IMG/VR virus record: IMGVR_UViG_3300027736_002225
Length of the DNA: 64,000 nucleotides
DNA from: a virus
Strand: one strand, 5' to 3'
A program made the position numbers and the translations under genes. How positions within the stretch are numbered: position 1 is the first letter of the stretch; each line of letters opens with the position of its first letter. The notes beneath the pieces were generated by a model. It worked only from the letters and a program-made list of their open reading frames with translations. It was not told where the DNA came from and ran no database searches. This document shows, piece by piece, positions 47,552 to 63,897 of this stretch.

Positions 47552-47811
47552 AGTGGCAGTTTGCCCCTTGGTTTCATATAATTTTGTTCCTCGGCCTCGT
47601 ATTGAATCTTATCCTTGAGGGACTTATTAATTAAGTTTGCAACAGATTCTACATCAATATCAATTTCGTTACAATATTGAATTACTGCATCCATGTAACT
47701 AATATGTTCCTTAGCAACAAGTTCTTCGATATACAATGAGAACTCGTTAGGCGATCTAAATCGTTTTGTAATAATTAAACTATCGGTTAAAATTTCGTTT
47801 TCTTGTATCAT
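47548..47811 (-). CDS. gp33: Late transcription coactivator gp33
   Basis: FSLYIEE, SYMDAVIQYC, LKDKIQYEA, KLPL motifs. Confidence 0.9.
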   Translation of the reverse strand: MIQENEILTDSLIITKRFRSPNEFSLYIEELVAKEHISYMDAVIQYCNEIDIDVESVANLINKSLKDKIQYEAEEQNYMKPRGKLPL

Positions 47812-48482
47812 TTTAATTCTGGAAATAAAATTTCGTCCATGAAGTTTTTAAAATTGGTTTCGTCCACACCTAGATTAACCATCATTGCTAATGTATGATG
47901 ATTCAACTTTTGATTAATACAATAATTGTTATAGGGGTCTATATAACTATTACTATTTCTCTCATTCCCTACATTATAAAGGAAATAATCTAAATTGTCT
48001 ATAGCAACGTTAATCAATTTATCCAATTCTTCTTCTGTACTAACATTTCCTGCCGCAAGCATTCCCGGGCTAAAAATCCGCTTTGCCCAATCTGGTAGTT
48101 CTCTTGGCTTAGTCCAATTTATAGATGACATCTTATCTTGATACCAATTATAAATTACACTATCGCCAGATTTAGAAAAATCATGGAATGCGCCAGTAAT
48201 CTTATTTGCTCCACATACCACATCAAATCCAAATATTGGAGCAGGGTCATTGAGATGCGGAAATACGGTCATGTGCATAACCCACATCTTTTTAGATTCT
48301 CTTGCATCTACAATTTCAATATGTGATCGTCGAAACTTATCAGATTTGAATAGATAATTTTTCCAAGTGAAATCAATATCAGAATGTTCATATTTACTAT
48401 CTATTGGTAAAATGTCACACTCTTTGAATCTATCAATAATTGATTCCGATAATGGAATCATCTTATCCCACACCATAGACAT
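47808..48482 (-). CDS. pcyX: Ferredoxin-dependent bilin reductase, PcyX/PcyA-like
   Basis: FRRSHIE, MH, PIFGFD, GAFHDFS, RELPDWA-IFS, QKLNHHT; coupled to heme oxygenase. Confidence 0.85.
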   Translation of the reverse strand: MSMVWDKMIPLSESIIDRFKECDILPIDSKYEHSDIDFTWKNYLFKSDKFRRSHIEIVDARESKKMWVMHMTVFPHLNDPAPIFGFDVVCGANKITGAFHDFSKSGDSVIYNWYQDKMSSINWTKPRELPDWAKRIFSPGMLAAGNVSTEEELDKLINVAIDNLDYFLYNVGNERNSNSYIDPYNNYCINQKLNHHTLAMMVNLGVDETNFKNFMDEILFPELK

Positions 48483-49006
48483 TAATTATATTCCTTAACC
48501 ATATTAATATTGTGGTCAAATGCAATGTTTGCTTCGTCTGCCATTTCAATAACTAGTTTAGATCTAACTTTACTAATTAATTCTTCTCTATTCTCAAACT
48601 TGTACATTTTTCCAGAACCAGGCACAAGTTTTGCAAGAGCCTGGCCACCAAATAAATCTCCCATATGACGAACATATACATGGGCCATTGCATCTTGTGC
48701 ATTGTCTATACCAAGTAAATAATTTACATAATCTACTGTAGATTTTTTAGGCGAATATAAAGTTGTAGGAGTGGTAAGCTCATTAATGTCATCTCTAATA
48801 TACGATGATCGTTTCAATTCCGGCATATCGTTAAATAAGCCAAATTTGTTTCCGACATCTTCTTCCAATACATGGTATATAAAACCAAGTTGAAATAAGT
48901 AATCTGCGTATTCTTCTCTTGTTACTGATTTTTTAAAGATAGCTTTAATAAACGGTTGCGTTTCTGCTTCTTTATGTTTTGCATGGGTTAGATCTTTTAG
49001 ACTCAT
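48482..49006 (-). CDS. hemO: Heme oxygenase
   Basis: LKDLTHAKHKEAE (proximal His), HVYVRHMGDLFGGQ, EANIAF motifs. Confidence 0.92.
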   Translation of the reverse strand: MSLKDLTHAKHKEAETQPFIKAIFKKSVTREEYADYLFQLGFIYHVLEEDVGNKFGLFNDMPELKRSSYIRDDINELTTPTTLYSPKKSTVDYVNYLLGIDNAQDAMAHVYVRHMGDLFGGQALAKLVPGSGKMYKFENREELISKVRSKLVIEMADEANIAFDHNINMVKEYN

Positions 49007-49918: not shown

Positions 49919-50356
49919 TTAGAAACTAAGTTTTACACCCGCAGTAACTCGGCTACCATTTTGTGCCTTGATAACATCTTGGCCAACTTGATAAGAGTAA
50001 TCTACAGTAGCGGATACTTTATTTGTTAGAGGTACCGAAGCACCAGCACCAACAATTACAGCATATCCATCTGGATCAACTTTGCTGTCAACAAATGCAC
50101 CGCTTCCTTTTACAGCAACTGATACGGGACCAATTTTTGTAAGAGTTTTAGAAGTACCTACACTATATGTGTCTGACGAAATATTACGAGTAAAGCCACC
50201 GGTTACATCCGCAACACCAATCTTACGACCGATAGTTACGCCCCAAACATTTTCGCTTGAGCTAATGTTAGTACCACCATTGATACCAACTTCTGTGGCC
50301 TGCGCTGCAGTTACTGCACTAATAAGTGCGGTTACAAGTACAAGTTTTTTAATCAA
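49919..50356 (-). CDS. Outer-membrane beta-barrel protein (OmpX/Ail/Lom-like size)
   Basis: Signal peptide ending AQA, alternating beta strands, C-terminal Phe; TTG start with AGGAG RBS. Confidence 0.75.
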   Translation of the reverse strand: MIKKLVLVTALISAVTAAQATEVGINGGTNISSSENVWGVTIGRKIGVADVTGGFTRNISSDTYSVGTSKTLTKIGPVSVAVKGSGAFVDSKVDPDGYAVIVGAGASVPLTNKVSATVDYSYQVGQDVIKAQNGSRVTAGVKLSF

Positions 50357-50381
50357 AATTTTCTCCTGTTGTTAAACATAT

Positions 50382-50680
50382 TGGTAGGTTATTCTGTTAC
50401 GAGGAAACCTACCGAAACCCTAAGCTAGCGTTTAGGCTGCTAATGCGAACAATTCGTCGTTTGCGTTTACGGTTTTTCTTCTTTTTACAAGGTTGCTCTT
50501 GTGCTGTCCACTCATTTACTTGTTGCCCTGTCGAAACTATGCAGGCCCATCGTATAAGCACTAATGGTTTGCCTGCACTCGGATGATTGAGTCGGTTTTA
50601 TGCAATAGTGCGTTATATGGTGGACCTGGGGGGATTCGCACCCCCGTCCAGAACACTTTTCTCTTTGCTTCATACAGCAA
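50382..50680 (-). ncRNA. ssrA: Circularly permuted (two-piece) tmRNA; tag peptide ANDELFALAA
   Basis: T-arm and CAGGTCCACCA end at 50618 precede the GGGCCTG 5' strand at 50548; G3:U70 pair; tag ORF at 50464-50432; self-complementary intervening segment. Outer ends approximate. Confidence 0.92.
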
Positions 50681-50685
50681 TAAAA

Positions 50686-50778
50686 ATATACTTAGGGAGA
50701 TCTGCCCTCCCGTACCCACTAAGAAGCGGGATCTTGTCTAATTGCACAGCCTAGCCGTGTCCGAGATCATAAGTATAT
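50686..50778 (-). ncRNA. Unclassified tRNA-like multi-stem RNA
   Basis: Closing stem ATATACTTA/TAAGTATAT enclosing three arms, one T-arm-like (GGGAG-GGCAGAT-CTCCC). Confidence 0.55.
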
Positions 50779-50781
50779 GTT

Positions 50782-51078
50782 TTATCGTTGATAACAATTT
50801 CTCTCGCGATAAATTTTACCATCCGGTGTTTGAATTTCTTTCCAGTCGGTACATACAGTTTGTGTCTGTTGTACAATTACCGGTTGCTGTTGTACAACCA
50901 CAGGTTGTGGTTGATTTTGGTTTGCAATTATTGCGCCGGCAATACCACCAATAATTAGTGGTGCTACCCAATCACTACGTTCAACAATAACTGTCCGTGG
51001 CTCCCAATGTCTGTGGTGCCATTGGGCGTTTGCTGAAAATGTAAATGCAAAAATTGCTAGAAAAAGTAGTTTTTTCAT
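50782..51078 (-). CDS. Exported hypothetical protein with Gly-zipper-like segment
   Basis: Signal peptide ending ANA; IIGGIAGAII segment. Confidence 0.7.
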   Translation of the reverse strand: MKKLLFLAIFAFTFSANAQWHHRHWEPRTVIVERSDWVAPLIIGGIAGAIIANQNQPQPVVVQQQPVIVQQTQTVCTDWKEIQTPDGKIYRERNCYQR

Positions 51079-51098: not shown

Positions 51099-51127
51099 AT
51101 TATAACAGAAATTTAGAAAAATGTCAA
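51099..51127 (-). promoter_or_regulatory. Early sigma70-type promoter
   Basis: TTGACA-17-TATAAT with extended TG. Confidence 0.85.
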
Positions 51128-51131
51128 GCGT

Positions 51132-51791
51132 TTATTGTCCATTTTCGTAAGAATCTCGACATTTTAGCAATTCCGCGACCCAATTATCACGTTTTTCGAT
51201 GAAAACTTGGGGAGAATCGCCTTCCACTGCTATTAACACCACTAATTTACTAATTGGAATGCCAGTTCTTTCCTCGTACATGATTGCATATGCCGCACAT
51301 TGCATAAAGTAGCTATGAATCCAATGTTTTTCTTTGCGCCTACCCGAAGTCTTGAAGTCAATGACTGCTAATTTGCCATCAAACTCTCCAATACAGTCAA
51401 CAGTCCCTGCTAGACGCAAGTGATCTGAGTACAATCTCTCTTCTTGAAGATGTATATTGTCAATTCGATGCAAATCATTAACAATGCTGTCAAATAATTC
51501 TTTTTGGAACATTGACATTTCTTGTATTGCATTCACATTGTTTAAATAATTTTCAACGTGTGTATGTAATTTAGTTCCTCGACTTGTAGCGGCTCGAGAA
51601 ATCTTATTTGCTTCCTCTTCGCCTACTTTTTTACGCCACTCAATAATTCCTTGTTTGCTTTGAGCACCAAGTATTGTAGTCACCGAAGGATATTTTTTAC
51701 CCTCCGGTGTTACGTAATGCCTTACACCACTTGGTAGCGTAATCTGCTCCAATTTTTCAAACTCTTTCACCTTAACATGATTAAATGTCAT
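51132..51791 (-). CDS. PD-(D/E)XK exonuclease (Cas4-like fold, T4-like core gene)
   Basis: YPSVTT, RGTKLH, AGTVDC, IDFKTS, QCAAYA motifs. Confidence 0.85.
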   Translation of the reverse strand: MTFNHVKVKEFEKLEQITLPSGVRHYVTPEGKKYPSVTTILGAQSKQGIIEWRKKVGEEEANKISRAATSRGTKLHTHVENYLNNVNAIQEMSMFQKELFDSIVNDLHRIDNIHLQEERLYSDHLRLAGTVDCIGEFDGKLAVIDFKTSGRRKEKHWIHSYFMQCAAYAIMYEERTGIPISKLVVLIAVEGDSPQVFIEKRDNWVAELLKCRDSYENGQ

Positions 51792-51794
51792 TAA

Positions 51795-52433
51795 TTATCC
51801 TTGTAATATATCCACTGCATGGTTGTAGTGTGCAATACGATCCTCAAGACCAATAAAACCGCCATTGATTTTTTTAGTCATCATTTTTAAATCTTGCGTA
51901 TCTGCCAATTCATTTAAATTATTTGCATTCCAGAACCAGCATGCAGAATTTAAAGCATAGTATGGTTGCAATAATATATCTGGATTATCTAACAAAGTAT
52001 GGTCATCAAAGAATGCTTCAGAGCATCTTGTATAATTTGATTTACCTGTCAATTGGATTAACCCTCGACCTCTATACTTCCATCCATCTCCACTTGCCTC
52101 ATCCCCATTACCCATCCTGTTTGAATACACTCTGTTTGCAATCTTTTCAGGTTGTCTAGCATATTGTGCAGCAATCTCATTATTGGGAAAATATTTACCA
52201 AAGATTTTCTGTAGACCATCTGCGCTATAGTTCAAGTTTTCTTGAACAAGAGTAAATCCGCCTGATTCATGCGCACATTGTGCAATGAATGCAGCAACTC
52301 TCCCAATGTCGTAAATATCATATTGTGGAAGTGTTTCCACAATTGCAGTATACCATTCAGATATGTTTTTAACTTTTGGTAATAAGTGTTTTAAATGTTC
52401 TTCTGTAAAATTAAAATCAAAACTATCAGCCAT
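51795..52433 (-). CDS. GH19 chitinase-like endolysin
   Basis: AFIAQCAHESGGF, ENLNYS, YRGRGLIQLTG, TKKINGG motifs. Confidence 0.9.
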   Translation of the reverse strand: MADSFDFNFTEEHLKHLLPKVKNISEWYTAIVETLPQYDIYDIGRVAAFIAQCAHESGGFTLVQENLNYSADGLQKIFGKYFPNNEIAAQYARQPEKIANRVYSNRMGNGDEASGDGWKYRGRGLIQLTGKSNYTRCSEAFFDDHTLLDNPDILLQPYYALNSACWFWNANNLNELADTQDLKMMTKKINGGFIGLEDRIAHYNHAVDILQG

Positions 52434-52478
52434 TTTGTCTCCTTATAATTGTTATTCGCATGAGACATAATTAATACG

Positions 52479-53252
52479 TTATATATTGTCCTCGTAATCA
52501 AGTTTTGCTAAGATATAGTCTTTTACTAGTGATGAACGAACAATGTCATCTGCAGTAAATTCTATACGAGTGAATGCTTGCATCTTTGCCGCAATATCGA
52601 AGAACTTTAAAATTCCTGTCTTATCGCCAGCTTTTCTTAAATCGGTTTGTCTATAATCACCACACCAAATAATTTTGGATCGGTATCCTACCCTAGTCAT
52701 AACAGTATCAATTTCTTCAAAATTCATATTTTGCATTTCATCTACGATAATGATCGCATCATCGAAACTCATACCTCTAATGAAACTTGTTGAAATGAAT
52801 TCTATGTGACCTTGTTCTTCTAATCTATCCCAAGCGTCTTTGCGACCGAAAAATGTTTCGCATATCTGACGATATGGTTGCTGGTAGATTTCCATTTTTT
52901 CAGAAACATCTCCAGGCAGATGGCCTATTTCTCTTGACTGCACTGCAGAACGTACAATAATAATTTTGTTGAAAGGATTACTTTTATCTAGTACCTCTTC
53001 CAATGCTTTGTATAATGCAATAAATGTTTTCCCTGTACCTGCAACTCCGTGCAATGCTACAAAGTAGTCTCCCCGTTTATATGCATTAAAAAAATCCTTT
53101 TGATTATCCGTTAACGGAGCAAAGGTTTTGAGATCGTCTAATCGTAATCTTAAAGTATTATTTGATCTTGTTCCTTGTTTATGATCTTTGGTTGTTAATG
53201 AGTTTTCAGAATACGTCGCTGCCGATGTATTAGTTGAACGTTTAGTCGCCAT
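52479..53252 (-). CDS. phoH: PhoH-like ATPase
   Basis: GVAGTGKT, IRGMSF, DEMQN, GDYRQTDL, DIVRS motifs. Confidence 0.93.
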   Translation of the reverse strand: MATKRSTNTSAATYSENSLTTKDHKQGTRSNNTLRLRLDDLKTFAPLTDNQKDFFNAYKRGDYFVALHGVAGTGKTFIALYKALEEVLDKSNPFNKIIIVRSAVQSREIGHLPGDVSEKMEIYQQPYRQICETFFGRKDAWDRLEEQGHIEFISTSFIRGMSFDDAIIIVDEMQNMNFEEIDTVMTRVGYRSKIIWCGDYRQTDLRKAGDKTGILKFFDIAAKMQAFTRIEFTADDIVRSSLVKDYILAKLDYEDNI

Positions 53253-53309
53253 GTAAAGTCTCGGTTAGTTTATATTAAGGGTATTTCTACCCCGCCCCCA
53301 TAATATAGT

Positions 53310-53564
53310 CTAACTCCTAGATAACTTATCTCCTAAGTTACTTTTGTAGTTATTTGAATGAATTTTAGACAATACTTCTTTGAAACCACCGTCTGGTTTA
53401 GTAACTCCTAGACGAACAGCATCTCCAAATGCAGGAGCACCAATAATAGATTCGTGATTTATTGATTGACAGTTAGTACATTGTTGTTCCGGCCGAGATG
53501 CCCAAGAACACAGAACATTGAAAACAGTTTCACAATCTAAACATTTTAAAGTATAACTAGGCAT
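53310..53564 (-). CDS. FmdB-like zinc-ribbon protein
   Basis: MPSYTLKCLDC...CTNC; ATG at 53564. Confidence 0.75.
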   Translation of the reverse strand: MPSYTLKCLDCETVFNVLCSWASRPEQQCTNCQSINHESIIGAPAFGDAVRLGVTKPDGGFKEVLSKIHSNNYKSNLGDKLSRS

Positions 53565-54114
53565 AAATGTACCAATCAGGTTTTTCTCGTTTTTTCCACG
53601 ATGCAAGATGTTGCTTTGCACCTACGTAATAATTTATATATGATTTAATAGAATTAGAAATCACTTTATATGTATCGGGCATTGCAGGGGTTGGCTCTGA
53701 CCACCCTTCGTTACCAATATTCTTTGGAATGTTTTTTAACAGAACAAAGCAAAGTCCGTCTCTTTCTACTTTATGTGTCTTCCCATATCTATATGTATAT
53801 TCTTCGCACAAGGCGATTAACATATTAGATAGCCAAATGTAATTTTCTTTTGACTTTCTTACCCAAATAGCTGAAGGATGGTTGATATGAGTAGCACTAT
53901 ACAATATGCCATCACGATTGTCAAAAAGTTCATACCGTGTCTGTTTTCTTCCAGATTTAGATAAACCAACAACTTGAATACCATCAAGGTACCGATGAGC
54001 AGTAGAAAGAAGTTGAGCATATTCAAGGATCATTTTTACTACATGCTTGTCAGTATGTAGTTTTGCGCATTCAATAGTATTGTTATGTAGATAAAAGATA
54101 TTAATTTTTATCAC
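53557..54114 (-). CDS. Pyrimidine-dimer DNA glycosylase-like protein (start uncertain)
   Basis: NIFYL, HVVKMILEYAQLLSTAH, THINHPSAIW, EYTYRYGKTH motifs. Confidence 0.7.
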   Translation of the reverse strand: MIKINIFYLHNNTIECAKLHTDKHVVKMILEYAQLLSTAHRYLDGIQVVGLSKSGRKQTRYELFDNRDGILYSATHINHPSAIWVRKSKENYIWLSNMLIALCEEYTYRYGKTHKVERDGLCFVLLKNIPKNIGNEGWSEPTPAMPDTYKVISNSIKSYINYYVGAKQHLASWKKREKPDWYIYA

Positions 54115-54337
54115 CTTTATTTAACTTTGCATCTAGCTCTTTCCAAGCTTCTTCCTCTTCTGGAGGAGCAACCGTATCATTTTTCTTAGTCAAAGACCAT
54201 GTACCATCTTCAAGATCTTTCCAGATAAGAGTATCACCTTCTTTCCATCCGGTTTCTTCTAACATATCGGGAGGAAAGTTTAGTATACTATCTCCCGTTT
54301 CAGGATCTTCTTCTATTTTGACAGACCATCTTTTCAT
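54101..54337 (-). CDS. AbrB/MazE-like small DNA-binding protein
   Basis: ILNFPPDMLEETGWKEGDTLIW motif. Confidence 0.6.
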   Translation of the reverse strand: MKRWSVKIEEDPETGDSILNFPPDMLEETGWKEGDTLIWKDLEDGTWSLTKKNDTVAPPEEEEAWKELDAKLNKGDKN

Positions 54338-55656
54338 TTGATTTTATTTTCCATATCTGCTTTTGTTTTATCTAAACGAAGCTCAATAAAAATTGGCAAG
54401 AACAATCGTTCAACATTATCGCCACGATCCTTAATACGAGCATTATATTTTACTGACACAATTTTACCAATAACATCTTTACCAATTGAATCTCGCTCAT
54501 CATCAGTAAATCCTGATCCAACATTCACTTGAATTTTGCCATCTTCGGATTCACATACAAGTGCTCCGAGACGACCTACATTTTTACCTGTACCTTCAAC
54601 CCAATCAACAACTTTAAGATCGCAATCGAGTTCGCCTTTAAACTTGATCTGTTCTTTAGAACGTTTGTCTTCCCAGATATTTGTCTTGGATTTTAGGATA
54701 GTTCCTTCTTGACCTTCAGCAAGAAACTTCTCAAAAATCTTTTGTGCATCATACTGATTATTAACTTCCTTAGTCCACACAATATCTACAAGATGTCCTA
54801 TTGCAGATGCACCTTTAAGGAAATCAATATTTTGTATCAATTCCATAAAGCGATCGTTATACGGTGTAGTATATTTGCCTATTTGAAAGGCAGTAAAAGG
54901 AATTGCATCCCATAATGTTACACGAACCATTGTCGCTTCTTTATCAGACATTGTGCCCTTAACTGCTTTGCTAAGAATGCCGTTGCCTGTTTTACGATCT
55001 AATGGTTTACCTGCAGAATCTACAACAAGTAGTTCGCCATCAAACACATAATTGGAACCATAATAACTAGAAAGTTTAAGTAGGGCGTCACTAAACAACT
55101 TACTCGGAATAGAAAGTTCTCGGCCATTTCGGCTCCTATATTCTACTGTGCCATTACGCACAATTGCGTTGAAACGCATACCATCTAATTTTAACTGACA
55201 GTATGCAGGGAATTTAATTTTGTCGACAAGTTTTTGCTCGAATCCAGAAGCCAGCATAACCGGGTAGGTGGATACAAGCTTTGGCCAGATTTTATTTGCG
55301 GTTGCCTCGGATACTCCGCAACGAAGATCTTTCTTGATGATTTTTTCAATAACGCCGGCGTTTGCTTCATTCAATGATTCCAATACATTAGTCAATAGGT
55401 CAATACCAGCATGGCCGGTAACATTACGAGTAGCTAGTTCATTCTCAATTTGATCCATTGCCCAAGACAAAGGCTTTTTGCCGTTTGCAGTATAGGAAGG
55501 AATCTTTCGAATGTAAAAACTAATCAATGGATCAAGAGCAAGTTTAATTACTCGTTGAAGATCTTTGTTATCTTTGTTCGCAGTTAGAATTGCTTCTTTA
55601 GCCAGCCGAGAATTGTCGGCTGCAAGCAAATCAAAGATATCGGAGATTGTAGTCAT
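54334..55656 (-). CDS. gp30: ATP-dependent DNA ligase
   Basis: KLDGMR, FDGEL, EGTILK, KFK, VGSGF, LFLPIF motifs; ATG at 55656. Confidence 0.95.
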   Translation of the reverse strand: MTTISDIFDLLAADNSRLAKEAILTANKDNKDLQRVIKLALDPLISFYIRKIPSYTANGKKPLSWAMDQIENELATRNVTGHAGIDLLTNVLESLNEANAGVIEKIIKKDLRCGVSEATANKIWPKLVSTYPVMLASGFEQKLVDKIKFPAYCQLKLDGMRFNAIVRNGTVEYRSRNGRELSIPSKLFSDALLKLSSYYGSNYVFDGELLVVDSAGKPLDRKTGNGILSKAVKGTMSDKEATMVRVTLWDAIPFTAFQIGKYTTPYNDRFMELIQNIDFLKGASAIGHLVDIVWTKEVNNQYDAQKIFEKFLAEGQEGTILKSKTNIWEDKRSKEQIKFKGELDCDLKVVDWVEGTGKNVGRLGALVCESEDGKIQVNVGSGFTDDERDSIGKDVIGKIVSVKYNARIKDRGDNVERLFLPIFIELRLDKTKADMENKIK

Positions 55657-55777
55657 TATGAGTTTTTGCCTTACGTTTATAACGAGTTTTGAGTTCAACA
55701 ACTTTCAGTCGATATTTCGGTGTACGAAGATCTTTCGCAACGAAATTTCTAACAGGAAGTTTCTTTACTTGTTTCAT
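55631..55777 (-). CDS. Small basic protein resembling ribosome-rescue factor ArfA
   Basis: MKQVKKLPVRNFVAKDLRTPKYRLKVVELKTRYKRKAKTHNDYNLRYL; first ORF after an early promoter. Confidence 0.5.
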   Translation of the reverse strand: MKQVKKLPVRNFVAKDLRTPKYRLKVVELKTRYKRKAKTHNDYNLRYL

Positions 55778-55783
55778 GTCTCT

Positions 55784-55812
55784 ATTATAACAGAAAATAG
55801 TACCCGTGTCAA
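55784..55812 (-). promoter_or_regulatory. Early sigma70-type promoter
   Basis: TTGACA-17-TATAAT with extended TG. Confidence 0.85.
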
Positions 55813-55836
55813 GCATAAGGTTATTGTGCTTAATAT

Positions 55837-56025
55837 TTAAGCAAAAAATGGATGTTCTTCCACGTTTACGTTAAAAGTAACACTCTTATAACGATGAGGG
55901 GTTACTGATACTTTTTCTTTGGCGGCTTCGATATCTTCGATGTTGGCGTAGACACCTACAACTGATTGCTTTTTATTGCGACCAATTTTATCTCGCCAGG
56001 TTGCTTCTAGTATATATCGAATCAT
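55837..56025 (-). CDS. Hypothetical protein
   Basis: 62-aa ORF with ATGA overlap. Confidence 0.6.
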   Translation of the reverse strand: MIRYILEATWRDKIGRNKKQSVVGVYANIEDIEAAKEKVSVTPHRYKSVTFNVNVEEHPFFA

Positions 56026-56297
56026 GCGCTAGCCATCGTTGTAGAATTTGTAATGGTTTCATACATTGTTTCGAATTCTTCGTGCTCTTCAATCTCTTTG
56101 CTAAAGTTTTGCTTATGATAAACTCTAGCCATACGACGAAAAGTCTTTTTACTAAGTTCTTGCTTCTCACAAATATCTTTAATTGCTTCACGAATAAACT
56201 CACGTTCGCCGTCCATGCGAGTCATACTATTTGAAATTTCTTTCATACAATCAAAGATTTCTTTACGATCTTTTGGGTTTGATGGAATACCTGCCAT
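56022..56297 (-). CDS. dsbA: T4 DsbA-like dsDNA-binding protein
   Basis: KEISNSM, FRRMARVYHKQNF, FETMYE pattern. Confidence 0.8.
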   Translation of the reverse strand: MAGIPSNPKDRKEIFDCMKEISNSMTRMDGEREFIREAIKDICEKQELSKKTFRRMARVYHKQNFSKEIEEHEEFETMYETITNSTTMASA

Positions 56298-56299
56298 AA

Positions 56300-56644
56300 T
56301 TAATTTTTCCTTATAATATCATCTTCAATACAATTATATCCATACTGGATTTCAATAATTTTCAATGGTGCATCAGTTTCGTTGCAAAGTTGGTGCCACT
56401 CTTCTTTGCGTATATGCAGGCTTTGAAATTTATCAAATACTCCATATAGCTCAACATCTGTGCTAACATCCAAAGTATAAACTGTTGCAGTACCTTCAGC
56501 AACGAACCAATGTTCTGCTCTATCTTTGTGTTTTTGCATACTTAAACATTTACCGGGATCTATAGTTAATTCTTTAAGTTTAACTTCTTTTCCGTAGGCA
56601 TATAATACATTATAATATCCCCAATTGCGTGTTGTTATACTCAT
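56300..56644 (-). CDS. Cupin (mannose-6-P isomerase type II C-terminal-like)
   Basis: RNWGYY, LSMQKH-RAEHW, WHQL, IEIQYG, EDDI motifs. Confidence 0.8.
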   Translation of the reverse strand: MSITTRNWGYYNVLYAYGKEVKLKELTIDPGKCLSMQKHKDRAEHWFVAEGTATVYTLDVSTDVELYGVFDKFQSLHIRKEEWHQLCNETDAPLKIIEIQYGYNCIEDDIIRKN

Positions 56645-57033
56645 TATCGCCTCATAGATGAAATTTCTTTTGCTTCGTCATCACTAAAGATAGGTACTGC
56701 GTTAGATTTATGCATCGTACCAATACCTAATACTTTAGTTCCTGTATATTTTTTTGCGGGTGCTAGAACAGCAACTCCGTTGTCTTGATTAAGACTTTTG
56801 ATGTGGGCAGTACTACGCCCTGCAGGAATGTCAAGAGAATATTTCAAAACTTCTGCAGACATTGCCTGCTTACGTTTTTTCTCTTCTGCTTCAACGCCCC
56901 ACTTCTTTTTCATAGCAACCCATTCTTTATCAAGTTGCCGCGCACGTTTAGCCTCTTCGGCGCTTTTAAATTTAACTTTACCTTTTTTCTTTCCGTTTGT
57001 AGAAAGCCAAGGTCCAATAAGGTGCATAGTCAT
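56644..57033 (-). CDS. Conserved T4-like hypothetical protein
   Basis: YTGTKVLGIGTMHKSNAVP motif. Confidence 0.7.
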   Translation of the reverse strand: MTMHLIGPWLSTNGKKKGKVKFKSAEEAKRARQLDKEWVAMKKKWGVEAEEKKRKQAMSAEVLKYSLDIPAGRSTAHIKSLNQDNGVAVLAPAKKYTGTKVLGIGTMHKSNAVPIFSDDEAKEISSMRR

Positions 57034-57053
57034 AATAAGATCTCCATAATATA

Positions 57054-57082
57054 ATTATAACATCTTTTAGAACAACTGTCAA
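57054..57082 (-). promoter_or_regulatory. Early sigma70-type promoter
   Basis: TTGACA-17-TATAAT with extended TG. Confidence 0.85.
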
Positions 57083-57091
57083 GCATTATTT

Positions 57092-57262
57092 TCAATACTT
57101 ATCAAATGCTCTGTACTTATGATGTCTCATTAGTCTAGGATCATGATTTGGATCATTTGGCATTTCCCCTTGATCTAACCATTTACTGACGACCGGTTCA
57201 GGTTCAGATATGTCTCGTTTGAAGAACCGAGTCAATCTTTCAAAGAGACTTTCTCTTTTTTT
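57092..57262 (-). CDS. -1 frame extension of the upstream 162-aa gene (or a TTG-started small ORF)
   Basis: Open frame ...RESLFERLTRFFKRDISEPEPVVSKWLDQGEMPNDPNHDPRLMRHHKYRAFDKY* fills the gap up to the next promoter. Confidence 0.5.
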   Translation of the reverse strand, partial: KKRESLFERLTRFFKRDISEPEPVVSKWLDQGEMPNDPNHDPRLMRHHKYRAFDKY

Positions 57263-57720
57263 GCTACTGGTTCCTTTTTCTCCTTTGGTTTAGGAGGGGG
57301 CAATGCATCAGGGAAAGCTTCTCGAACAATGTCTTCTTTTAGTGAAGGGTATTTTGTTTGTAATTTTTTATCTTTTGCAAGACACAAATCATCTCCTTCG
57401 GTCCAATGAATACCTTCAAGCATTTGAATAAAGAGTTGTTCTTTCTTCATTTTTGTAAGGTTAATATTTGGATCGAGCCAAATATACATACGACGAAATT
57501 CTGCAAACAAATTAGTTTCAGAATATCCTTCCGGTACCGTTTGATCTCTTTTATGCGGAGGATGTCCTTCGGGCAAGTGCAGTTTAACATCTGGGTTAAA
57601 ATTAATCTGCAACATCCCTATAAGTACAGGATGACTATATGCGCGCAAAACATTTACTTTTGCCTGTTTAGTTTGAGCTTTCTCAACTTCAGCAAAGATT
57701 TGTGGTATTGTTGTTTTCAT
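57232..57720 (-). CDS. Conserved T4-like hypothetical protein
   Basis: LPEGHPP, KKEQLFIQMLEGIH, KDKKL motifs; follows rnh. Confidence 0.7.
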   Translation of the reverse strand: MKTTIPQIFAEVEKAQTKQAKVNVLRAYSHPVLIGMLQINFNPDVKLHLPEGHPPHKRDQTVPEGYSETNLFAEFRRMYIWLDPNINLTKMKKEQLFIQMLEGIHWTEGDDLCLAKDKKLQTKYPSLKEDIVREAFPDALPPPKPKEKKEPVAKKEKVSLKD

Positions 57721-58607
57721 TAAAATTCCTCAATCAATTCTAGCATGTTTTTCATTTTATGTTCAACGAAAAAATTCAAAAGCATACTTTTGTTTTTTAC
57801 GGGCTGTTCTACGTAGTTATTTATAACAGCGTTTTTAAGATCTTCAGGAATATATGCAAAATCAACAAGTGTTTTATTTCGTTCAAATCTAGTTTTAAAT
57901 TCGACATCATTTGGCAACGTACTTTGGTCTTTGTACCAAGCTTCTAATTTCTTAGATGAAACCGGCTTTTGTCGTTCACCGGCAACAATAGAATCATCCG
58001 CAGAAAGAACATTTGGAATGCCGTCACCTTTATCGCCTTTAATAGTATGCTCAAACAAATACTGTTCTGGCGAGTTATCCGGTTTAACAAATTTCTTTTG
58101 AATTGGCGAATACTGTTTCACATTCTTAAATTTTTGCAGCTGAATGAAATCATGATCGCCTGAAATGATTAGGAATGGTTTTGGATCATCGTCAAAAACA
58201 GAACCTTCTCGCAAATCATTAGTCTGAGACCACTCTGCCAAAATAGCAATAACGTCATCCGCCTCTGCACCTTCGATGTTAACAACTTTATATGGAAAGA
58301 ATGCATCAATCTCATTACGAATAAGATCAAGTGATTCAAAGATTGCCTTCCAATCTAGACCAGAATCTTCTCGAGCTTTTTTGCGACCAGCTTTGTAGTA
58401 TTGAAATACTTGACGACGCCAGTATGTTCGATTGTCACACGCAATAACAATCTGTCCATATTCTTTTCCAAATTTTTGTTTGTATCCTCGGATCGAATTT
58501 AAAATCATATGTCGAAGAAGCGGAGTCTGTACTTCAATATCTTTACGTCCTCCAATTTCAGCCATAAAATTTGAGATAGCCGTTTGGCTATAATCAACAA
58601 CAATCAT
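57720..58607 (-). CDS. rnh: T4 RNase H (5'-3' exonuclease)
   Basis: WRRQVFQYYKAGR, EADDVI, SGDHDFIQL, GDKGDGIPN motifs. Confidence 0.95.
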   Translation of the reverse strand: MIVVDYSQTAISNFMAEIGGRKDIEVQTPLLRHMILNSIRGYKQKFGKEYGQIVIACDNRTYWRRQVFQYYKAGRKKAREDSGLDWKAIFESLDLIRNEIDAFFPYKVVNIEGAEADDVIAILAEWSQTNDLREGSVFDDDPKPFLIISGDHDFIQLQKFKNVKQYSPIQKKFVKPDNSPEQYLFEHTIKGDKGDGIPNVLSADDSIVAGERQKPVSSKKLEAWYKDQSTLPNDVEFKTRFERNKTLVDFAYIPEDLKNAVINNYVEQPVKNKSMLLNFFVEHKMKNMLELIEEF

Positions 58608-58622
58608 AATATATCCTTTTTA

Positions 58623-59525
58623 TTAAGTATTCATTGTAGTATTTGCAGGAGATACACCACCCGCAGGCAATTCGCCATTTCTAATTTTTTGTTGGTATTC
58701 TACATAAGGTGTAATTGCCGCTTTAGCACTGGGGCTAACAATTGCATTCATTAACTTACTGTTGCATCCTGATAATAAATCAAAAGCCAATCCAACAATG
58801 AATTGTTCAACTGCTGCAGTAATAATCTTTTCGTTTAGTTTGTTTTCAATAACATTATTAAAATTTACTACTGCCGAATTTAAATCTTGCAATGCGGTAA
58901 CTGCTCCAGTATATCCTGTACCATCAGCAACTGCTTTAACGAATTTATCTTTTGCTGCAGTTATAATTGCACCACTATTAAATCCATCGACAATTGTTTG
59001 CAAATCTATATCAGGAACATCTGTTGATTTGCTACATCCAGATCCCATTAAATCCGCTAGAGTGCAACCGCCTGCAAATCCACTACCACCGGTTGCTTGT
59101 CCAGATAATTGATTAGTGTATGTTAAGAAACTTGTTAGTTTTGTTTTGGATTCTTGTAATAGAGCCAATTCATCAATTTCATCACTTGTTTTAGATTCAA
59201 TTGCTGTGAGAAAATCTATCCTAGTTTGAATAGTTGTATTGATTGCTGCTGTTCCTTGCGCTACAGGATTATGAAAGAACTGTTGTGCAATTACGGTTGC
59301 ATTATTAATCTCGCTGGCGGCTGCTTTTACCTTTGCTACAATTTCCTGTGTAAATTGTGCAAGTGCTGCGGCCTCGCCAAATTCGGCTGCGCCGGGAATA
59401 CCTAAGCTTTTAATAATATTTTGAGCGCCGCCCGAAGTTTCGTTAAAAATTTGTTGAACTGGGCTTCCGCCCATTTGTGCAAGAATAATTCTTATTAGTT
59501 GACAATATGATAGTGACAATGCCAT
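58623..59525 (-). CDS. Hypothetical Ala-rich helical protein
   Basis: 300-aa ORF; no motif recognised. Confidence 0.6.
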   Translation of the reverse strand: MALSLSYCQLIRIILAQMGGSPVQQIFNETSGGAQNIIKSLGIPGAAEFGEAAALAQFTQEIVAKVKAAASEINNATVIAQQFFHNPVAQGTAAINTTIQTRIDFLTAIESKTSDEIDELALLQESKTKLTSFLTYTNQLSGQATGGSGFAGGCTLADLMGSGCSKSTDVPDIDLQTIVDGFNSGAIITAAKDKFVKAVADGTGYTGAVTALQDLNSAVVNFNNVIENKLNEKIITAAVEQFIVGLAFDLLSGCNSKLMNAIVSPSAKAAITPYVEYQQKIRNGELPAGGVSPANTTMNT

Positions 59526-59535
59526 TAGCGTCTTT

Positions 59536-60627
59536 CTATTTAATAGCTTTTAGGATAATCATTTCCGCATTGATACGACCATTTGCTGGTTGATCTTTAG
59601 CATTAATTGTATCCATAAATTTTCTTAGTTGTACTTTACCGCAAGCCATCATTGCCTTAATTTGTTCTGCAGGTTTACGCAAAGTCTTTTGAATAGACTG
59701 TTCTGGTTCGTAGTTCTGAATACTTGAACCTTTAACCTGAAACCCTGATTCCGAACGATATACTATCAACTTACGAGTCTTTGTATTGAAGAACCATACT
59801 TGTTGAGCACCAATGATCTCTGTTGCAGAAACAGACTGAAGACCAAGTTCGGTATCAGAACGTTTAAACTTCAAAGACTTAATTTGAATTCCTGGTGCTT
59901 TCGGTTTAGACACTCGCGGCTTGCGATTTGCTTTCTTGAATTCTGAATATTTATCACAATCCTCGATACACTGTGCAAGAGTTTTAACGATGCTTTTTAG
60001 TTCACGTTTCTGCAGGAAAGAATACCCCTCATTCAATTGAGAATCCTTACCTTCATACGCAGCAATAAACTCTCTGAGATTCTTTTTAGACCACTCTTTA
60101 ACATCCGTAACATACGGTTTTGGAATGTGATTCGCTTGCATATGCTTATACAATGAGAAGTCTTCTTTATCTTGAACCATCTTGTCCAAGCAACCTTCTA
60201 GTTCTCCGATATACTCAGAGATCTTTTCTTTCATTGCATCTTGAATAGATACACGGGGAGCAGATGTAGTTACAACTTGTACTACGGGTTCTGCAGTTTT
60301 GATAGTCGAATCTAGAATCTTACGAATGTAATTATTAAACTTAACAAGATGATTATCAGAAATAGAACCACCTAGCATAATAACACGGGCAATCCAACCA
60401 AAGGTGTTTACAATCTGAACATCTTTTATCTCGTCGAAAGTCTTCAGTTCGTTTGGCATCTTTGCCTTAACATAGTCCCTAGTATATCTACGAGCATCGC
60501 TCTTTAGCTTCTCTGCAGAATACCAGTTCATTACCCGCATCAGGTTGATATTGTACTTTATATCCGTACCGTCAATCAAAGATACGTCAGGTTCGTTACC
60601 GGAAAGTGCAGATGTGTTTCGTGCCAT
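59536..60627 (-). CDS. Conserved T4-like hypothetical protein
   Basis: C-terminal WFFNTKTRKL, VKGSSI, KTLRKP, NGRIN motifs. Confidence 0.7.
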   Translation of the reverse strand: MARNTSALSGNEPDVSLIDGTDIKYNINLMRVMNWYSAEKLKSDARRYTRDYVKAKMPNELKTFDEIKDVQIVNTFGWIARVIMLGGSISDNHLVKFNNYIRKILDSTIKTAEPVVQVVTTSAPRVSIQDAMKEKISEYIGELEGCLDKMVQDKEDFSLYKHMQANHIPKPYVTDVKEWSKKNLREFIAAYEGKDSQLNEGYSFLQKRELKSIVKTLAQCIEDCDKYSEFKKANRKPRVSKPKAPGIQIKSLKFKRSDTELGLQSVSATEIIGAQQVWFFNTKTRKLIVYRSESGFQVKGSSIQNYEPEQSIQKTLRKPAEQIKAMMACGKVQLRKFMDTINAKDQPANGRINAEMIILKAIK

Positions 60628-60649
60628 GTTAGTCCTGTGGTGTTGTTAC

Positions 60650-60967
60650 TTAGTCTATTATAACACCATATGTTGTTCTTGTCAAGCGACTTGGATCAAT
60701 AGATGCCTCTTTATAGTCTTTGATAATTTTGATTTCGTCAGCTGTTGTTTTTTCGTCAATTTTGCCGAATTCTTTTTCCATATAATAACGAGCCATCTTC
60801 TTAGTACACTGATCCATCAAACTAGTAGTTTCTTCGATTAACCAGAATCTAATAGGAGAACGGCCCCATGAACGATGCCGCAGGGCAGCGTGAAAGATTT
60901 CTCTATGATGTTTATTGGTTGGGTCAAATGTCTCGCACGGGCGGGAGAATTGTATAAGTTTACTCAT
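60650..60967 (-). CDS. Hypothetical protein
   Basis: 105-aa ORF with AGGA RBS. Confidence 0.6.
   Translation of the reverse strand: MSKLIQFSRPCETFDPTNKHHREIFHAALRHRSWGRSPIRFWLIEETTSLMDQCTKKMARYYMEKEFGKIDEKTTADEIKIIKDYKEASIDPSRLTRTTYGVIID
60657..60685 (-). promoter_or_regulatory. Early sigma70-type promoter
   Basis: TTGACA-17-TATAAT with extended TG, inside the 3' end of the upstream ORF. Confidence 0.8.
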
Positions 60968-60980
60968 ATTATGTTTCCTA

Positions 60981-61463
60981 TTAGTCTTCGTCTAAATCAT
61001 GTAGTTTCTTTACGATCACTCTCTCTTTACCATCAGTCCCAAACGTCATATTGGAATGGTATGCTTCAACCATGCCCTTTCGACGTAAGCTCTCGATGGA
61101 GATAAAGATCATGAACTGGTTTACCTTGGTCAAGAGTTCTTCGTCAGATTTGGATACGACATCCTCTCCGCGGGATAGCATCTCGGCCAGCAGAACAATA
61201 TCAGCCATTCGAGGATCAGTCTCGCGCTCTTCCTCTTCGTCGACATCGTCAAGATCAGCTTTAAAGTTACAGTTCACGATATTATTCAGTTCAGCCAGAT
61301 CAACATCGTTCAGATTCTTGAGAAACTGTCCGACGGTATAATACGGATTGTCTTGTAGATCCGCCGCCAAGATTCGAGTAATCTTCATGCATTCTTTATT
61401 CATGATGATGTTTGCGTAGTTAATATCGAATTCTCCAGTTTCGGAGTCTTGCTTATAGTTCAT
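60981..61463 (-). CDS. Hypothetical acidic protein
   Basis: Likely start MNYKQD at 61463, overlapping the upstream ORF end. Confidence 0.6.
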   Translation of the reverse strand: MNYKQDSETGEFDINYANIIMNKECMKITRILAADLQDNPYYTVGQFLKNLNDVDLAELNNIVNCNFKADLDDVDEEEERETDPRMADIVLLAEMLSRGEDVVSKSDEELLTKVNQFMIFISIESLRRKGMVEAYHSNMTFGTDGKERVIVKKLHDLDED

Positions 61464-61641
61464 CTTCGTTATCGTCCAGTAGTTTAATTGCCTTCTCGAG
61501 ACCGTCGATATACGGAACGAAACGATGCGGAATAATAAGTTGATAGATCCAACTTCGCCCGTCCCAATATTTACCCTCATTCAAGAGTTTCAAAAGACCC
61601 TTAAGATCCTCGACTGTCTCTAAGCGTTCTTTAGTATTCAT
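61453..61641 (-). CDS. Hypothetical protein
   Basis: 62-aa ORF directly after a promoter (nearly leaderless). Confidence 0.55.
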   Translation of the reverse strand: MNTKERLETVEDLKGLLKLLNEGKYWDGRSWIYQLIIPHRFVPYIDGLEKAIKLLDDNEDEL

Positions 61642-61649
61642 ATGTCTGT

Positions 61650-61678
61650 ATTATAACATCTTTCCCCTAAGATGTCAA
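61650..61678 (-). promoter_or_regulatory. Early sigma70-type promoter
   Basis: TTGACA-17-TATAAT with extended TG. Confidence 0.85.
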
Positions 61679-62028
61679 GCGCCTTTGTTCATCTCGGCAT
61701 TTTCAACGTTCGGAAACCCACTCATCATATCTTCTTCCCAAGGTTCCTCGACAAGATCCACCAACCGGGCATTGCTTTCAAAGTGTAGTTTATCCTGAAA
61801 CATACGTTTTTCCTGCACAGTAAGTTCACCATTAGTCTTTCGACCATTTGAACAGATCGGGCAACCAGCATTCCCACAATCCAGAGCATGATGCTTAGCC
61901 AGACGATGAGGCTCTTTAATGTAATGATCTAATCCAAATGTCTTAGCGATCTTTGTTTGTCTACGTATAGATGCATCTTTCTTTAAAATGCGTTGAGAGT
62001 GTAAGAATTTTTGTTCTTCAGATGACAT
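61675..62028 (-). CDS. Hypothetical protein with a His/Cys cluster (possible Zn site)
   Basis: HRLAKHHALDCGNAGCPICSN motif; AAGGAG RBS. Confidence 0.65.
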   Translation of the reverse strand: MSSEEQKFLHSQRILKKDASIRRQTKIAKTFGLDHYIKEPHRLAKHHALDCGNAGCPICSNGRKTNGELTVQEKRMFQDKLHFESNARLVDLVEEPWEEDMMSGFPNVENAEMNKGA

Positions 62029-62041
62029 ACAGATCTCCTTA

Positions 62042-62141
62042 TAGTGTAGTATAGTATAGAAACGATTAGTGTAGTTTATGGCTTCTATCTAGTATATATT
62101 AGTAAACGTCATAGTGTAGCGGTAGAGTAGCGGTAGAGTAG
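62042..62141. repeat. Six copies of TAG(T/A)(G/A)TAG
   Basis: Copies start at 62042, 62052, 62067, 62112, 62123 and 62134. Confidence 0.7.
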
Positions 62142-62387
62142 GAATAGAGGAACTCTTTTTAGTGTTGTTTTTCTGGAGAAATTTTTCTAGGGGAAATTTT
62201 TTTGAGATAAGAGTGACAACTTAGAGTGAGAAAACTCTGCGGGTCGTAGTGACTCGTAGTACGAATTGGATAAGTGATGATATAAGGTGGAGGGGCATAA
62301 GCTGAGGATATAGCAGCGAGGGGTGCTGACTTATAATTGAGGGTACCCCCTAGGGTATCTACCTCTAATCCGCCAGCCCCTCTAAGA

Positions 62388-62573
62388 CTATACCATAACC
62401 TCGCGGTCGTACCCTTCACGCATATCTACATGGTAAGCCATCTCGTCCACGGCATCTGTCACCGCCCGAACTGCCCCTAGGGGAATATTCAAGCGTCTAG
62501 CGATCTCTGTCTCTGAGATACCTGCGTCATACAAAACTTCGATTTCGATGAATAGATCCTTCATTTTGCTCAT
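62388..62573 (-). CDS. Small HTH-like protein
   Basis: GISETEIARRLNIPLGAV motif. Confidence 0.6.
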   Translation of the reverse strand: MSKMKDLFIEIEVLYDAGISETEIARRLNIPLGAVRAVTDAVDEMAYHVDMREGYDREVMV

Positions 62574-62788
62574 ACAGACTCCTTTTCTTTGCTATATTTC
62601 TCTGTCAATGCCTTCAAATTACTTAACACCTCTGCTTGCTTGTACCTAGGCATGTCCGCGAGTAGAGTAGAGAGCTGCATCTGTAGAGCACCCGCTGAGT
62701 AGGCATAAGAGCCCCAGTGTTCGTAGGTTACTTCGCCGAACTCGTTGAGGACTTCGTTGATTTCTTCTTTAGTGTATTTCGTAGTCAT
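62570..62788 (-). CDS. Hypothetical protein
   Basis: 72-aa ORF, ATGA-coupled to the next gene. Confidence 0.6.
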   Translation of the reverse strand: MTTKYTKEEINEVLNEFGEVTYEHWGSYAYSAGALQMQLSTLLADMPRYKQAEVLSNLKALTEKYSKEKESV

Positions 62789-62789
62789 A

Positions 62790-62879
62790 TTACATTGCGT
62801 AGAAGTAGATGATGAAAGCTGCGAACATTGTCGCTGCGAAGACTGTTGCTTGGAAGAGTTCTAGAGCGAATCGTTTCAT
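62790..62879 (-). CDS. 29-aa single-TM peptide (not in the ORF track)
   Basis: MKRFALELFQATVFAATMFAAFIIYFYAM*; AAGGA RBS; first ORF after an early promoter. Confidence 0.65.
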   Translation of the reverse strand: MKRFALELFQATVFAATMFAAFIIYFYAM

Positions 62880-62905
62880 TTTGGTTTCCTTGTTACTATG
62901 TCTCG

Positions 62906-62962
62906 ATTATAGCACAAAATGGACAGAGGGTCAAGCAAAGACCCTTTGCCCTGTAGGGCTTT
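62906..62962 (-). promoter_or_regulatory. Early promoter with upstream stem-loop (PeSL-like)
   Basis: TTGACC-17-TATAAT plus imperfect AAAGACCC...GGGCTTT inverted repeat. Confidence 0.75.
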
Positions 62963-63869
62963 ACGCCCCGGCGCTGACGATGTAACGAGCCAGATCTTTC
63001 CAATTCTCATTCTCAGCGCGAATCTTCGTCACTGCAATCAAAGAACGCAGAGACAAATTGTCTACTGTATTTGCTACTTCTTTAAGCAGATTCAAAGCGT
63101 CTTGCTTAAAGCCCATGCTGTACTCAGGCAGGAATTCGTCTTCTTTCATGATCACTTCCATGCGCTCTAGCTTCTGCATCTGTGTCATGGACAAGTCAAC
63201 GCACATAGCGCGTGTCTTCACTGCTTGGTCTATACGATCAGCGTCCATGTTGCTGATGAACACGATGGCACCTGTGAACTTGAAGGAACGAGGCAGATCT
63301 TCGTCTTTCATGTCTGCGTTCCAGCTGATCCAGCGCTCACCGTAAGAATCTAGCGCACCCTTGAGCAAGTTCAACGCTACGGGATCTTTGAGAACACTGT
63401 CGCAGTCGTCGAACACGAGCACTTGTCCGTTACCCTCGAACAACGTACGATAGAGACCTTTTGCTGTGCTGTAACCCTTGACAACACGATAAGACTTCGA
63501 AGAGTTAAACTTGTAACCTTCTTCGAATGATGCGAGGTCTGTAGTATCGATCAAGCCCTGAGCCTTGAGCGACTTCAACACTGTGTGCGTCTTACCCAGA
63601 CCACCCTGACCTGTGATGATCGCTGAGGCAATAGTCTTCTTACCAACCATTGTGACCATCTGCTGAACGAACTCAAAGCGCTTATTGATGCCAAACTCGT
63701 CAATCTTAGGCTGATTGTTCACAATGCCTGTAGTCGCTTCGACCTCTAGACCCATGCTAGCCAGAACGTTCTTGACGTACATCTCATGCTTAGAACGTGT
63801 CACCATTTTGCCATCCACGAATCCCTCGAAACGATTCTTTGCTTTGTTGAATTTGACTGCTACTTTCAT
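62961..63869 (-). CDS. P-loop ATPase (AAA-like), early gene
   Basis: Walker A GQGGLGKT, Walker B VLVFDDCD. Confidence 0.8.
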   Translation of the reverse strand: MKVAVKFNKAKNRFEGFVDGKMVTRSKHEMYVKNVLASMGLEVEATTGIVNNQPKIDEFGINKRFEFVQQMVTMVGKKTIASAIITGQGGLGKTHTVLKSLKAQGLIDTTDLASFEEGYKFNSSKSYRVVKGYSTAKGLYRTLFEGNGQVLVFDDCDSVLKDPVALNLLKGALDSYGERWISWNADMKDEDLPRSFKFTGAIVFISNMDADRIDQAVKTRAMCVDLSMTQMQKLERMEVIMKEDEFLPEYSMGFKQDALNLLKEVANTVDNLSLRSLIAVTKIRAENENWKDLARYIVSAGA

Positions 63870-63897
63870 ATACACCTCTGTTGCTGTTTATGCTGCT

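Follow-up and report, generated by a model that had tools for sequence, protein, structure and literature searches.

A 48-residue phage peptide of the DUF7230 family is a short-form relative of the ribosome-rescue factor ArfA

Results

A small conserved gene in front of a DNA ligase gene

The stretch of virus DNA analysed here (64,000 nucleotides of IMG/VR record IMGVR_UViG_3300027736_002225, referred to as the window) carries on its minus strand an open reading frame (ORF) of 48 codons, which lies directly in front of, and in the same transcription unit as, the gene of an ATP-dependent DNA ligase (Table 1). An initial annotation, made from the sequence alone, had likened its product to ArfA, the small protein that rescues stalled ribosomes in Escherichia coli, and had set it beside a transfer-messenger RNA (tmRNA) of the same phage. 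The ORF was found exactly as annotated, with a TGA stop codon of its own. Its last 26 nt overlap the ligase start (ATG at 55656), and the Shine-Dalgarno-like AAGG of the ligase sits within the R-K codons of the peptide. Because of this overlap, the last eight residues of the peptide come from the 5' end of the ligase gene in a different reading frame; of all parts of the peptide they are conserved least among its relatives.

The 48-codon ORF is a genuine conserved gene. Nine proteins in public data are 76-100% identical to the peptide, and all nine match the Pfam family DUF7230 (PF23876.2). Codons 1-40 were compared with those of a 73%-identical copy in the viral contig L030, which gave a ratio of non-synonymous to synonymous change (pN/pS) of 0.28 (pS 0.60, pN 0.17), the mark of purifying selection; the ten codons of A-K-D-L-R-T-P-K-Y-R differ between the two copies by five synonymous and no non-synonymous changes. 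A normal Shine-Dalgarno site stands in front of the gene in many of the relatives. The contigs from two metatranscriptome runs cover neighbouring parts of the window, none of them spans 55439-55773, and they give no evidence either way.

Table 1. Positions of the peptide gene, its conserved parts and the associated features in the window
Feature	Position	Strand	Basis or remark
Permuted (two-piece type) tmRNA gene, tag ANDELFALAA	~50341-50731	minus	ARAGORN; Rfam tmRNA_permuted RF04321 126 bits, beta_tmRNA RF01850 101 bits
Second promoter of the same class	51099-51129	minus	upstream of a 98-aa ORF (50782-51078) and the tmRNA
ATP-dependent DNA ligase gene, 440 aa	54334-55656	minus	downstream of the peptide gene, same transcription unit; Pfam DNA_ligase_A_M and OB_2, phrog_114 E 2e-123
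48-aa ArfA-like peptide gene, DUF7230 family	55631-55777	minus	own TGA; ORF and translation, DUF7230 match, nine close homologues with PF23876
Basic tail, codons 30-40, K-T-R-Y-K-R-K-A-K-T-H	55658-55690	minus	aligns to the ArfA mRNA-channel tail K33...Y39-x-R-K-x-K-H, with GKG deleted
Conserved block, codons 11-27, N-F-V-A-K-D-L-R-T-P-K-Y-R-L-K-V-V	55697-55747	minus	aligns to ArfA 14-30, the RF2-contacting part that includes F25
Early promoter GCTTGACA-N14-TGTTATAAT	55784-55814	minus	-10 hexamer ends 6 nt before the peptide ATG

The peptide belongs to DUF7230, a short branch of the ArfA lineage

Searched exhaustively with HMMER, a set of 1.84 billion cluster representatives gave 149 relatives of the peptide at E<1e-3. 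Nearly every one has a length of 36-70 residues, and they share the core RN-x-[VI]-AKDLRTPKYR-x-RVV-x-x-KK-x-Y-x-RK-x-KH; DUF7230 was matched by 96 of 148 relatives, and the window peptide itself reached E 2.5e-5 with this model. By sequence the peptide is a member of DUF7230. The corresponding PHROGs, 20887 and 2701, are both of unknown function.

The connection to ArfA appears only through profiles or intermediate sequences. A profile of 148 family members was searched against 177,635 distinct PDB sequences and retrieved six ArfA constructs (E 4.1e-5 to 4e-4) as the only significant matches, the next entry having an E of 0.78. The comparison of profiles that had been proposed as a check of the initial annotation came out in its favour: hhalign aligned the family with a nine-sequence ArfA alignment over 40 columns at 81% probability (P 1.2e-5), and a narrower 20-sequence profile gave 27% (P 7e-4). 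Twelve of 148 members matched Pfam ArfA, the best of them at E 3.5e-5 and 23.6 bits, under the cut-off of 25.5. With a hidden Markov model (HMM) of canonical ArfA the family scored a median of 11.2 bits, 95% of members having at least 5 bits, as compared to a median of 0.2 bits and 1.5% for composition-matched shuffles; the window peptide scored 7.8 bits, a value equalled by 4 of 5000 shuffles. This control rules out composition as the cause of the likeness. In the protein atlas an ArfA cluster was among the feature neighbours of the family.

Several sequences bridge the two families. Peptides encoded on three Pelagibacteraceae (SAR11) chromosomes read K-N-[FL]-I-AKDLRTPKY-[KR]-x-R-[VI]-V-K-P-KKGKGSF-x-RKK; they pass the Pfam ArfA gathering score (29.1-31.6 bits against 25.5) and match the window peptide with 14 of 21 residues identical (E 2e-9). 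A canonical gammaproteobacterial ArfA has N-L-A-K-R-A-V-M-T-P-K-F-R-S-R-I followed by KKGKGSY, and one family member (P0071), with a K-K-G-R-G insert, matches both Pfam models. Because the PDB profile search, hhalign, the Pfam matches, the shuffle control and the bridging sequences point the same way, DUF7230 is, on these comparisons, a short branch of the ArfA lineage. The alignment made by eye in the initial annotation is the same as that produced by the profiles.

Residues shared with ArfA and residues lost

The peptide and ArfA have in common an N-x-[IV] ... P-x-[FY]-R-x-[RK]-V block and a Y-x-R-K-x-K tail. In the block the aligned pairs are N11=N14, L17=L20, P20=P23, Y22=F25, R23=R26, K25~R28 and V26=V29 (peptide residue first), and in the tail they are Y33=Y39, R35=R41, K36=K42 and K38=K44. 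The strongest conservation in the family falls on the block aligned to ArfA 15-31 and so extends beyond the basic tail: A14, L17, R18, P20, K21 and Y22 are each conserved in at least 90% of members, and P20, K21 and Y22 are nearly invariant. ArfA residues 15-31 contact release factor 2 (RF2), Q27-E30 forming a beta-strand that is added to the RF2 sheet and F25 fitting into an RF2 pocket; the basic tail, which includes KGKGS, occupies the empty mRNA channel, and no single residue of it is essential (PMC6299226, PMC8012679). The peptide thus appears, by alignment, to keep the RF2-contacting segment with its proline, the aromatic at the F25 position and the R-x-R-V strand, and its tail Y33-K-R-K-A-K38, set against Y39-M-R-K-G-K44, would be predicted to occupy the channel. 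The KGKGS loop had been reported as absent, and every alignment indeed has a three-residue gap in place of GKG.

E. coli ArfA is made from a non-stop mRNA under tmRNA control. No such arrangement was found here, since an in-frame TGA follows the core; the ORF stops directly after it, and no E. coli-type 3' extension or hairpin was seen, the fold of the region being ordinary (z -1.67). A hairpin just past the stop (~55610-55632) was discarded as a candidate, with no apparent conservation in L030 (by eye only) and an ordinary fold z-score. The initial annotation had taken the stop codon for an escape from tmRNA control. The stop is real, but it sets the gene apart less than this implied: the SAR11 forms and other bona fide ArfA end likewise after the core.

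Distribution of the family in phages and bacteria

At least 535 confirmed family loci were found in IMG/VR viral contigs. Among cultured phages, 98 records carry the family, all as hypothetical or unannotated genes; 69 of them are Acinetobacter T4-like phages (in Acj61 the gene lies two genes upstream of rIIA), and the other carriers include large myoviruses of Rhizobium, Sinorhizobium, Agrobacterium and Ochrobactrum as well as Roseobacter and Pelagibacter phages. In Sinorhizobium phage phiM12 (L154, record 144805-146564) the homologue gp232 is two genes upstream of a RelA/SpoT-family gene, a family connected with translation stress. The motif was also seen at the N-terminus of or within longer ORFs in Pelagibacter phage HTVC115P gp18 (L002:2501-2761) and Roseobacter phage CRP-603 gp61 (L156); these are an ORF of 86 aa with an acidic tail and one of 316 aa, and they may be fusions or miscalled starts.

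In bacteria, a search with one exact 8-residue pattern gave 25 loci in 185,579 species genomes. The gene is chromosomal in SAR86, where it directly follows ubiB-tatABC, and in SAR11-related clades it occurs in three different syntenic housekeeping contexts; these contexts argue that the cellular members have a beneficial cellular function. The chromosomal peptides of such streamlined marine bacteria are 35-44 residues long and have their own stop codons (L018-L020 in Pelagibacteraceae; L007 and L009-L014 in SAR86; L021-L023 and L025-L027). Those of SAR11 with KGKGS pass Pfam ArfA, and those of SAR86 and other alphaproteobacterial clades are of the short form. Groups of the SAR86 and SAR11 type are not listed among the bearers of ArfA (PMC8012679, PMC6299226). 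The Pfam DUF7230 model is weak on bacterial members, and the Pfam ArfA model matched in 3 of 300 gammaproteobacterial genomes, too few to test whether the two families exclude each other.

An early promoter and a probably leaderless message

The peptide ORF is the first behind a promoter that matches the sigma-70 consensus at 12 of 12 positions (55812-55784; TTGACA, a 17-nt spacer, TATAAT, and a TG before the -10 that makes it an extended -10 promoter), in agreement with the consensus early promoter claimed for it. Chance alone would give 0.03 copies of the class GCTTGACA-N14-TGTTATAAT in the window; seven were counted, of which five are exact. Every copy lies on the minus strand, in the interval 51-64 kb (51099-63928), and they are likely the early promoter class of this phage. 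In several copies A-[TC]-G directly precedes GCTTGACA.

The copies at 51099, 57054, 60657 and 61650 stand 20-69 nt before their respective start codons; behind those at 51099 and 57054 the leader includes a GGAG Shine-Dalgarno site. Between the promoter of the peptide gene and its ATG no Shine-Dalgarno site was found. The distance from promoter to start is kept in the relatives L029 (6 nt) and L030 (9 nt), in which the intervening bases differ. With 6 nt between promoter and ATG, no Shine-Dalgarno site and a layout that is kept in L029 and L030, the message is probably leaderless, as judged from the spacing; the claim covers the window, L029 and L030. In other relatives a TATAAT before the start mostly consists of the Y-N codons in an N-terminus M-Y-N-K that follows a normal Shine-Dalgarno site. 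A longer reading of 61 aa (start 55816) was rejected as an artefact, its in-frame ATG and next codons being the promoter consensus ATGCTTGACA, which recurs at 57084.

The gene is accessory and dispensable. Among 31 viral contigs with a ligase 72-98% identical to that of the window and with the upstream region covered, only five carry it: the group of the window itself, plus L030, whose record is also that of L125. The other relatives (among L118-L149, ligase 72-83% identical) have the same promoter directly before the ligase gene, with a 27-nt leader and an AAGGA site. In sequence this leader is similar to what joining the two ends of the peptide ORF would give; the core of the peptide is thus an insertion or deletion of ~110 nt in this phage lineage.

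A tmRNA and tRNA genes in company of the peptide gene

That the phage carries a tmRNA beside the peptide was confirmed by ARAGORN and Rfam. The tmRNA gene lies 5 kb downstream of the peptide gene, L030 is arranged alike, and the tmRNA may be co-transcribed from the promoter at 51099. A permuted tmRNA scored above the Rfam threshold in 9 of 12 peptide-bearing IMG/VR records, a count that is no test of independence because the records were picked from among the best matches to the window peptide and are probably related. All six peptide-bearing records with an estimated completeness of at least 95% (160-345 kb) have one. Two close relatives, both fragments, keep the tmRNA and lack the peptide gene, both at the ligase locus and in the rest of what is sequenced; conversely, no permuted tmRNA was found in Acj61 and five cultured alphaproteobacterial phages that carry the peptide. 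The link is not obligate, each occurring without the other. The pair recurs, and the two-route rescue system suggested in the initial annotation is not supported as an obligate one.

Large freshwater phage genomes of 160-345 kb commonly carry permuted tmRNAs of betaproteobacterial type (G306-G312, G314, G316, G318, G319, G322); four environmental tags and that of the window follow AND-x-x-[FYW]-ALAA. Against cultured phages the window tmRNA gave five short partial blastn matches only.

Of 60 viral loci, 17 have a tRNA array that starts 0.6-6 kb downstream of the peptide gene. Many large environmental phages have the gene just upstream of arrays of up to 22 tRNA genes; in L050, L053, L056, L058, L059 and L061 it is ~640 bp upstream of tRNA-Met/Leu/Arg, and further cases are L032-L034, L039, L043, L049, L054, L057, L063 and L081.

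Discussion

Proposed function and alternatives

We consider it reasonably probable that the peptide is a shortened, release-factor-dependent ribosome-rescue factor of the ArfA lineage, in which ribosome binding, the release-factor partner, rescue activity and a benefit to the phage would follow by analogy with ArfA. In the proposed mechanism, the peptide would be produced early from its consensus promoter, probably as a leaderless mRNA, and because it has its own stop codon it would escape the tmRNA-coupled repression that holds E. coli ArfA low. The beta-strand of N-F-V-A-K-D-L-R-T-P-K-Y-R-L-K-V-V would pair with domain 2 of a class-I release factor, most likely RF2, with Y22 in the pocket that receives ArfA F25, and the release factor would then cut the peptidyl-tRNA without a stop codon. 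Ribosomes trapped on fragments of host or phage mRNA would thus be freed, alongside the action of the phage's own tmRNA, and an anti-defence purpose may be supposed. A co-fold of the peptide, given with its family alignment, and E. coli RF2 scored 0.32 against 0.02 for the best of three controls. Among solved complexes 58 of 80 attained that score, as did 2 of 110 mismatched pairs, and a pass at or below 0.60 counts as weak; the runs agreed in at least 62% of contacts, with a partner pLDDT of at least 50. The co-fold lends weak support to pairing with RF2, and since ArfA-RF2 structures have been solved it may show likeness, through memory of those complexes, rather than binding.

Several observations weigh against a rescue factor of the ArfA type. 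The peptide lacks the GKG of the KGKGS loop, which is the hallmark of ArfA, and has K, D and K at the positions of ArfA A18, L19 and L24, so that RF2 may be activated differently or not at all. Where the K-H motif has its H, the peptide has T39, with H40 adjacent, and the H of the motif is not conserved in the closest relatives. The score with DUF7230 (24.7 bits) is 2.3 bits under the curated cut-off of 27. Searched as a single sequence, the peptide gave no match to PF03889 at E<=10 in a Pfam scan and no ArfA in the PDB by phmmer, in BLASTP against E. coli ArfA or in the NCBIfam search. The absence of the gene from close relatives also counts on this side.

The lost loop and the K, D and K substitutions would suit a decoy or inhibitor derived from ArfA, which would bind the empty mRNA channel and perhaps RF2 without triggering hydrolysis, as ArfA(A18T) binds and recruits RF2 without activating it (PMC8012679), and would block host rescue or termination or sequester RF2 for takeover of the host; an early gene with a strong promoter fits such a role. 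Yet R stands at the A18 position in a canonical ArfA (L110), no individual residue of the KGKGS tail is essential to ArfA activity (PMC6299226), the phage also has a tmRNA, which is a rescue function, and SAR86 and SAR11-related bacteria carry the same short form as a conserved gene of the chromosome, where an inhibitor is unlikely. We regard the decoy as unlikely. The differences in the N-terminal half, at the contacts of E. coli ArfA with the RF2 switch loop, could instead mean that a rescue factor of this lineage works with another partner or in another mode, using RF1 as well as RF2 or acting with the phage tmRNA and host SmpB. The hosts include Alphaproteobacteria, a group that the reviews of ribosome rescue do not list among those with ArfA, and ArfT is a small rescue peptide able to use either release factor (PMC6299226). 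However, hardly any variation occurs in the beta-strand segment or at the aromatic aligned to F25, which is specific for the RF2 pocket, and no result here favours RF1 or SmpB; there is little probability in this alternative either.

The failure of single-sequence searches, together with the short, lysine- and arginine-rich composition, is what might be expected if a basic peptide had come to resemble ArfA by coincidence and served in nucleic-acid binding or as an upstream ORF regulating the ligase, whose start it overlaps and whose Shine-Dalgarno-like AAGG it holds. Against this stand the shuffle control, which excludes composition, the SAR11 bridges, which pass Pfam ArfA and share 14 of 21 residues with the peptide, and the genes of other phages, which are untied to the ligase and lie near rIIA (Acinetobacter), tRNA arrays or RelA/SpoT (phiM12). 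Convergence is the explanation in which we place the least credence. Both the decoy and convergence are made less probable by the housekeeping contexts of the cellular members and by the tmRNA and tRNA genes that accompany the peptide gene.

More tentatively, DUF7230 as a whole may be a second, short and functional clade of ArfA that has no KGKGS loop, serving as the rescue factor of SAR86 and SAR11-related bacteria and as a widespread auxiliary gene of phages. In the window it would be an early, leaderless and unrepressed gene accompanied by a tmRNA, and in other phages a gene by tRNA arrays, keeping ribosomes free during host mRNA decay or an RNA-cleaving defence.

Relation to known rescue systems

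Like ArfA (PF03889; E. coli YhdL; PDB 5MDV, 5H5U, 5U4I, 5MGP), the peptide is small and basic; unlike E. coli ArfA, it ends at a stop codon of its own without a 3' regulatory hairpin, is borne by a phage and is probably leaderless. Phage ORFs that match Pfam ArfA were annotated earlier in Citromicrobium phage RXM (g10) and pelagiphage HTVC027P (gp30), the latter being transcribed early and late in infection, and neither was tested for function (PMC8953757, PMC12753301). Unlike the window peptide, these two match the canonical Pfam ArfA, and they are likened to it here by their annotation; a tblastn search of the SAR11 long form against cultured phages gave no match. Phage ArfA annotations were thus already known; no mention of DUF7230 was found in the literature searched, nor any paper linking it to ArfA or to phage tmRNA.

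ArfT of Francisella and BrfA of Bacillus are also small release-factor-dependent rescue peptides with basic tails in the mRNA channel (PMC6299226, PMC8012679). ArfT differs in belonging to a separate repeat-forming family (charged-helix or KGG-type) and in having no aromatic at the F25 position, where the peptide has Y (PMC6514570, PMC6299226). On these published descriptions ArfT was set aside as the family of the peptide, and neither ArfT nor BrfA turned up in the profile or single-sequence searches. Trans-translation by tmRNA-SmpB acts on the same substrate, ribosomes with an empty mRNA channel, but it works through an RNA together with a protein and adds a tag to the nascent chain.

An active short form would give a testable function to a Pfam family of unknown function present in hundreds of phage genomes, including Acinetobacter T4-like phages of therapeutic type, and would carry ArfA-type rescue past Beta- and Gammaproteobacteria to SAR11-related Alphaproteobacteria and SAR86. 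Phages would then import termination independent of stop codons alongside tmRNA and tRNAs, and the absence of the KGKGS loop would reveal which features of ArfA are dispensable.

Other features of the window

The surrounding gene set is that of a large T4-like freshwater phage. The neighbours in the window include a T4-type RNase H, a DsbA-like regulator and PhoH, and a GH19 glycoside hydrolase (Pfam 'Chitinase class I') and a cell-wall hydrolase are also encoded. The stretch was found again in freshwater and riverine metagenomes of several studies; a megablast search of cultured phages gave no match to the region and no near-identical phage. Just downstream of the ligase gene lies a 78-aa ORF (54101-54337, minus) with a weak MazE/AbrB-like match (phrog_661), and two genes upstream of the peptide gene there is a 114-aa cupin (56300-56644, minus) with the C-terminal domain of mannose-6-phosphate isomerase. 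A heme oxygenase gene (PF01126) adjoins that of a ferredoxin-dependent bilin reductase (PF05996) at 47808-49006 on the minus strand, a pair that is unusual outside cyanophages, in a phage whose tmRNA is of betaproteobacterial type.

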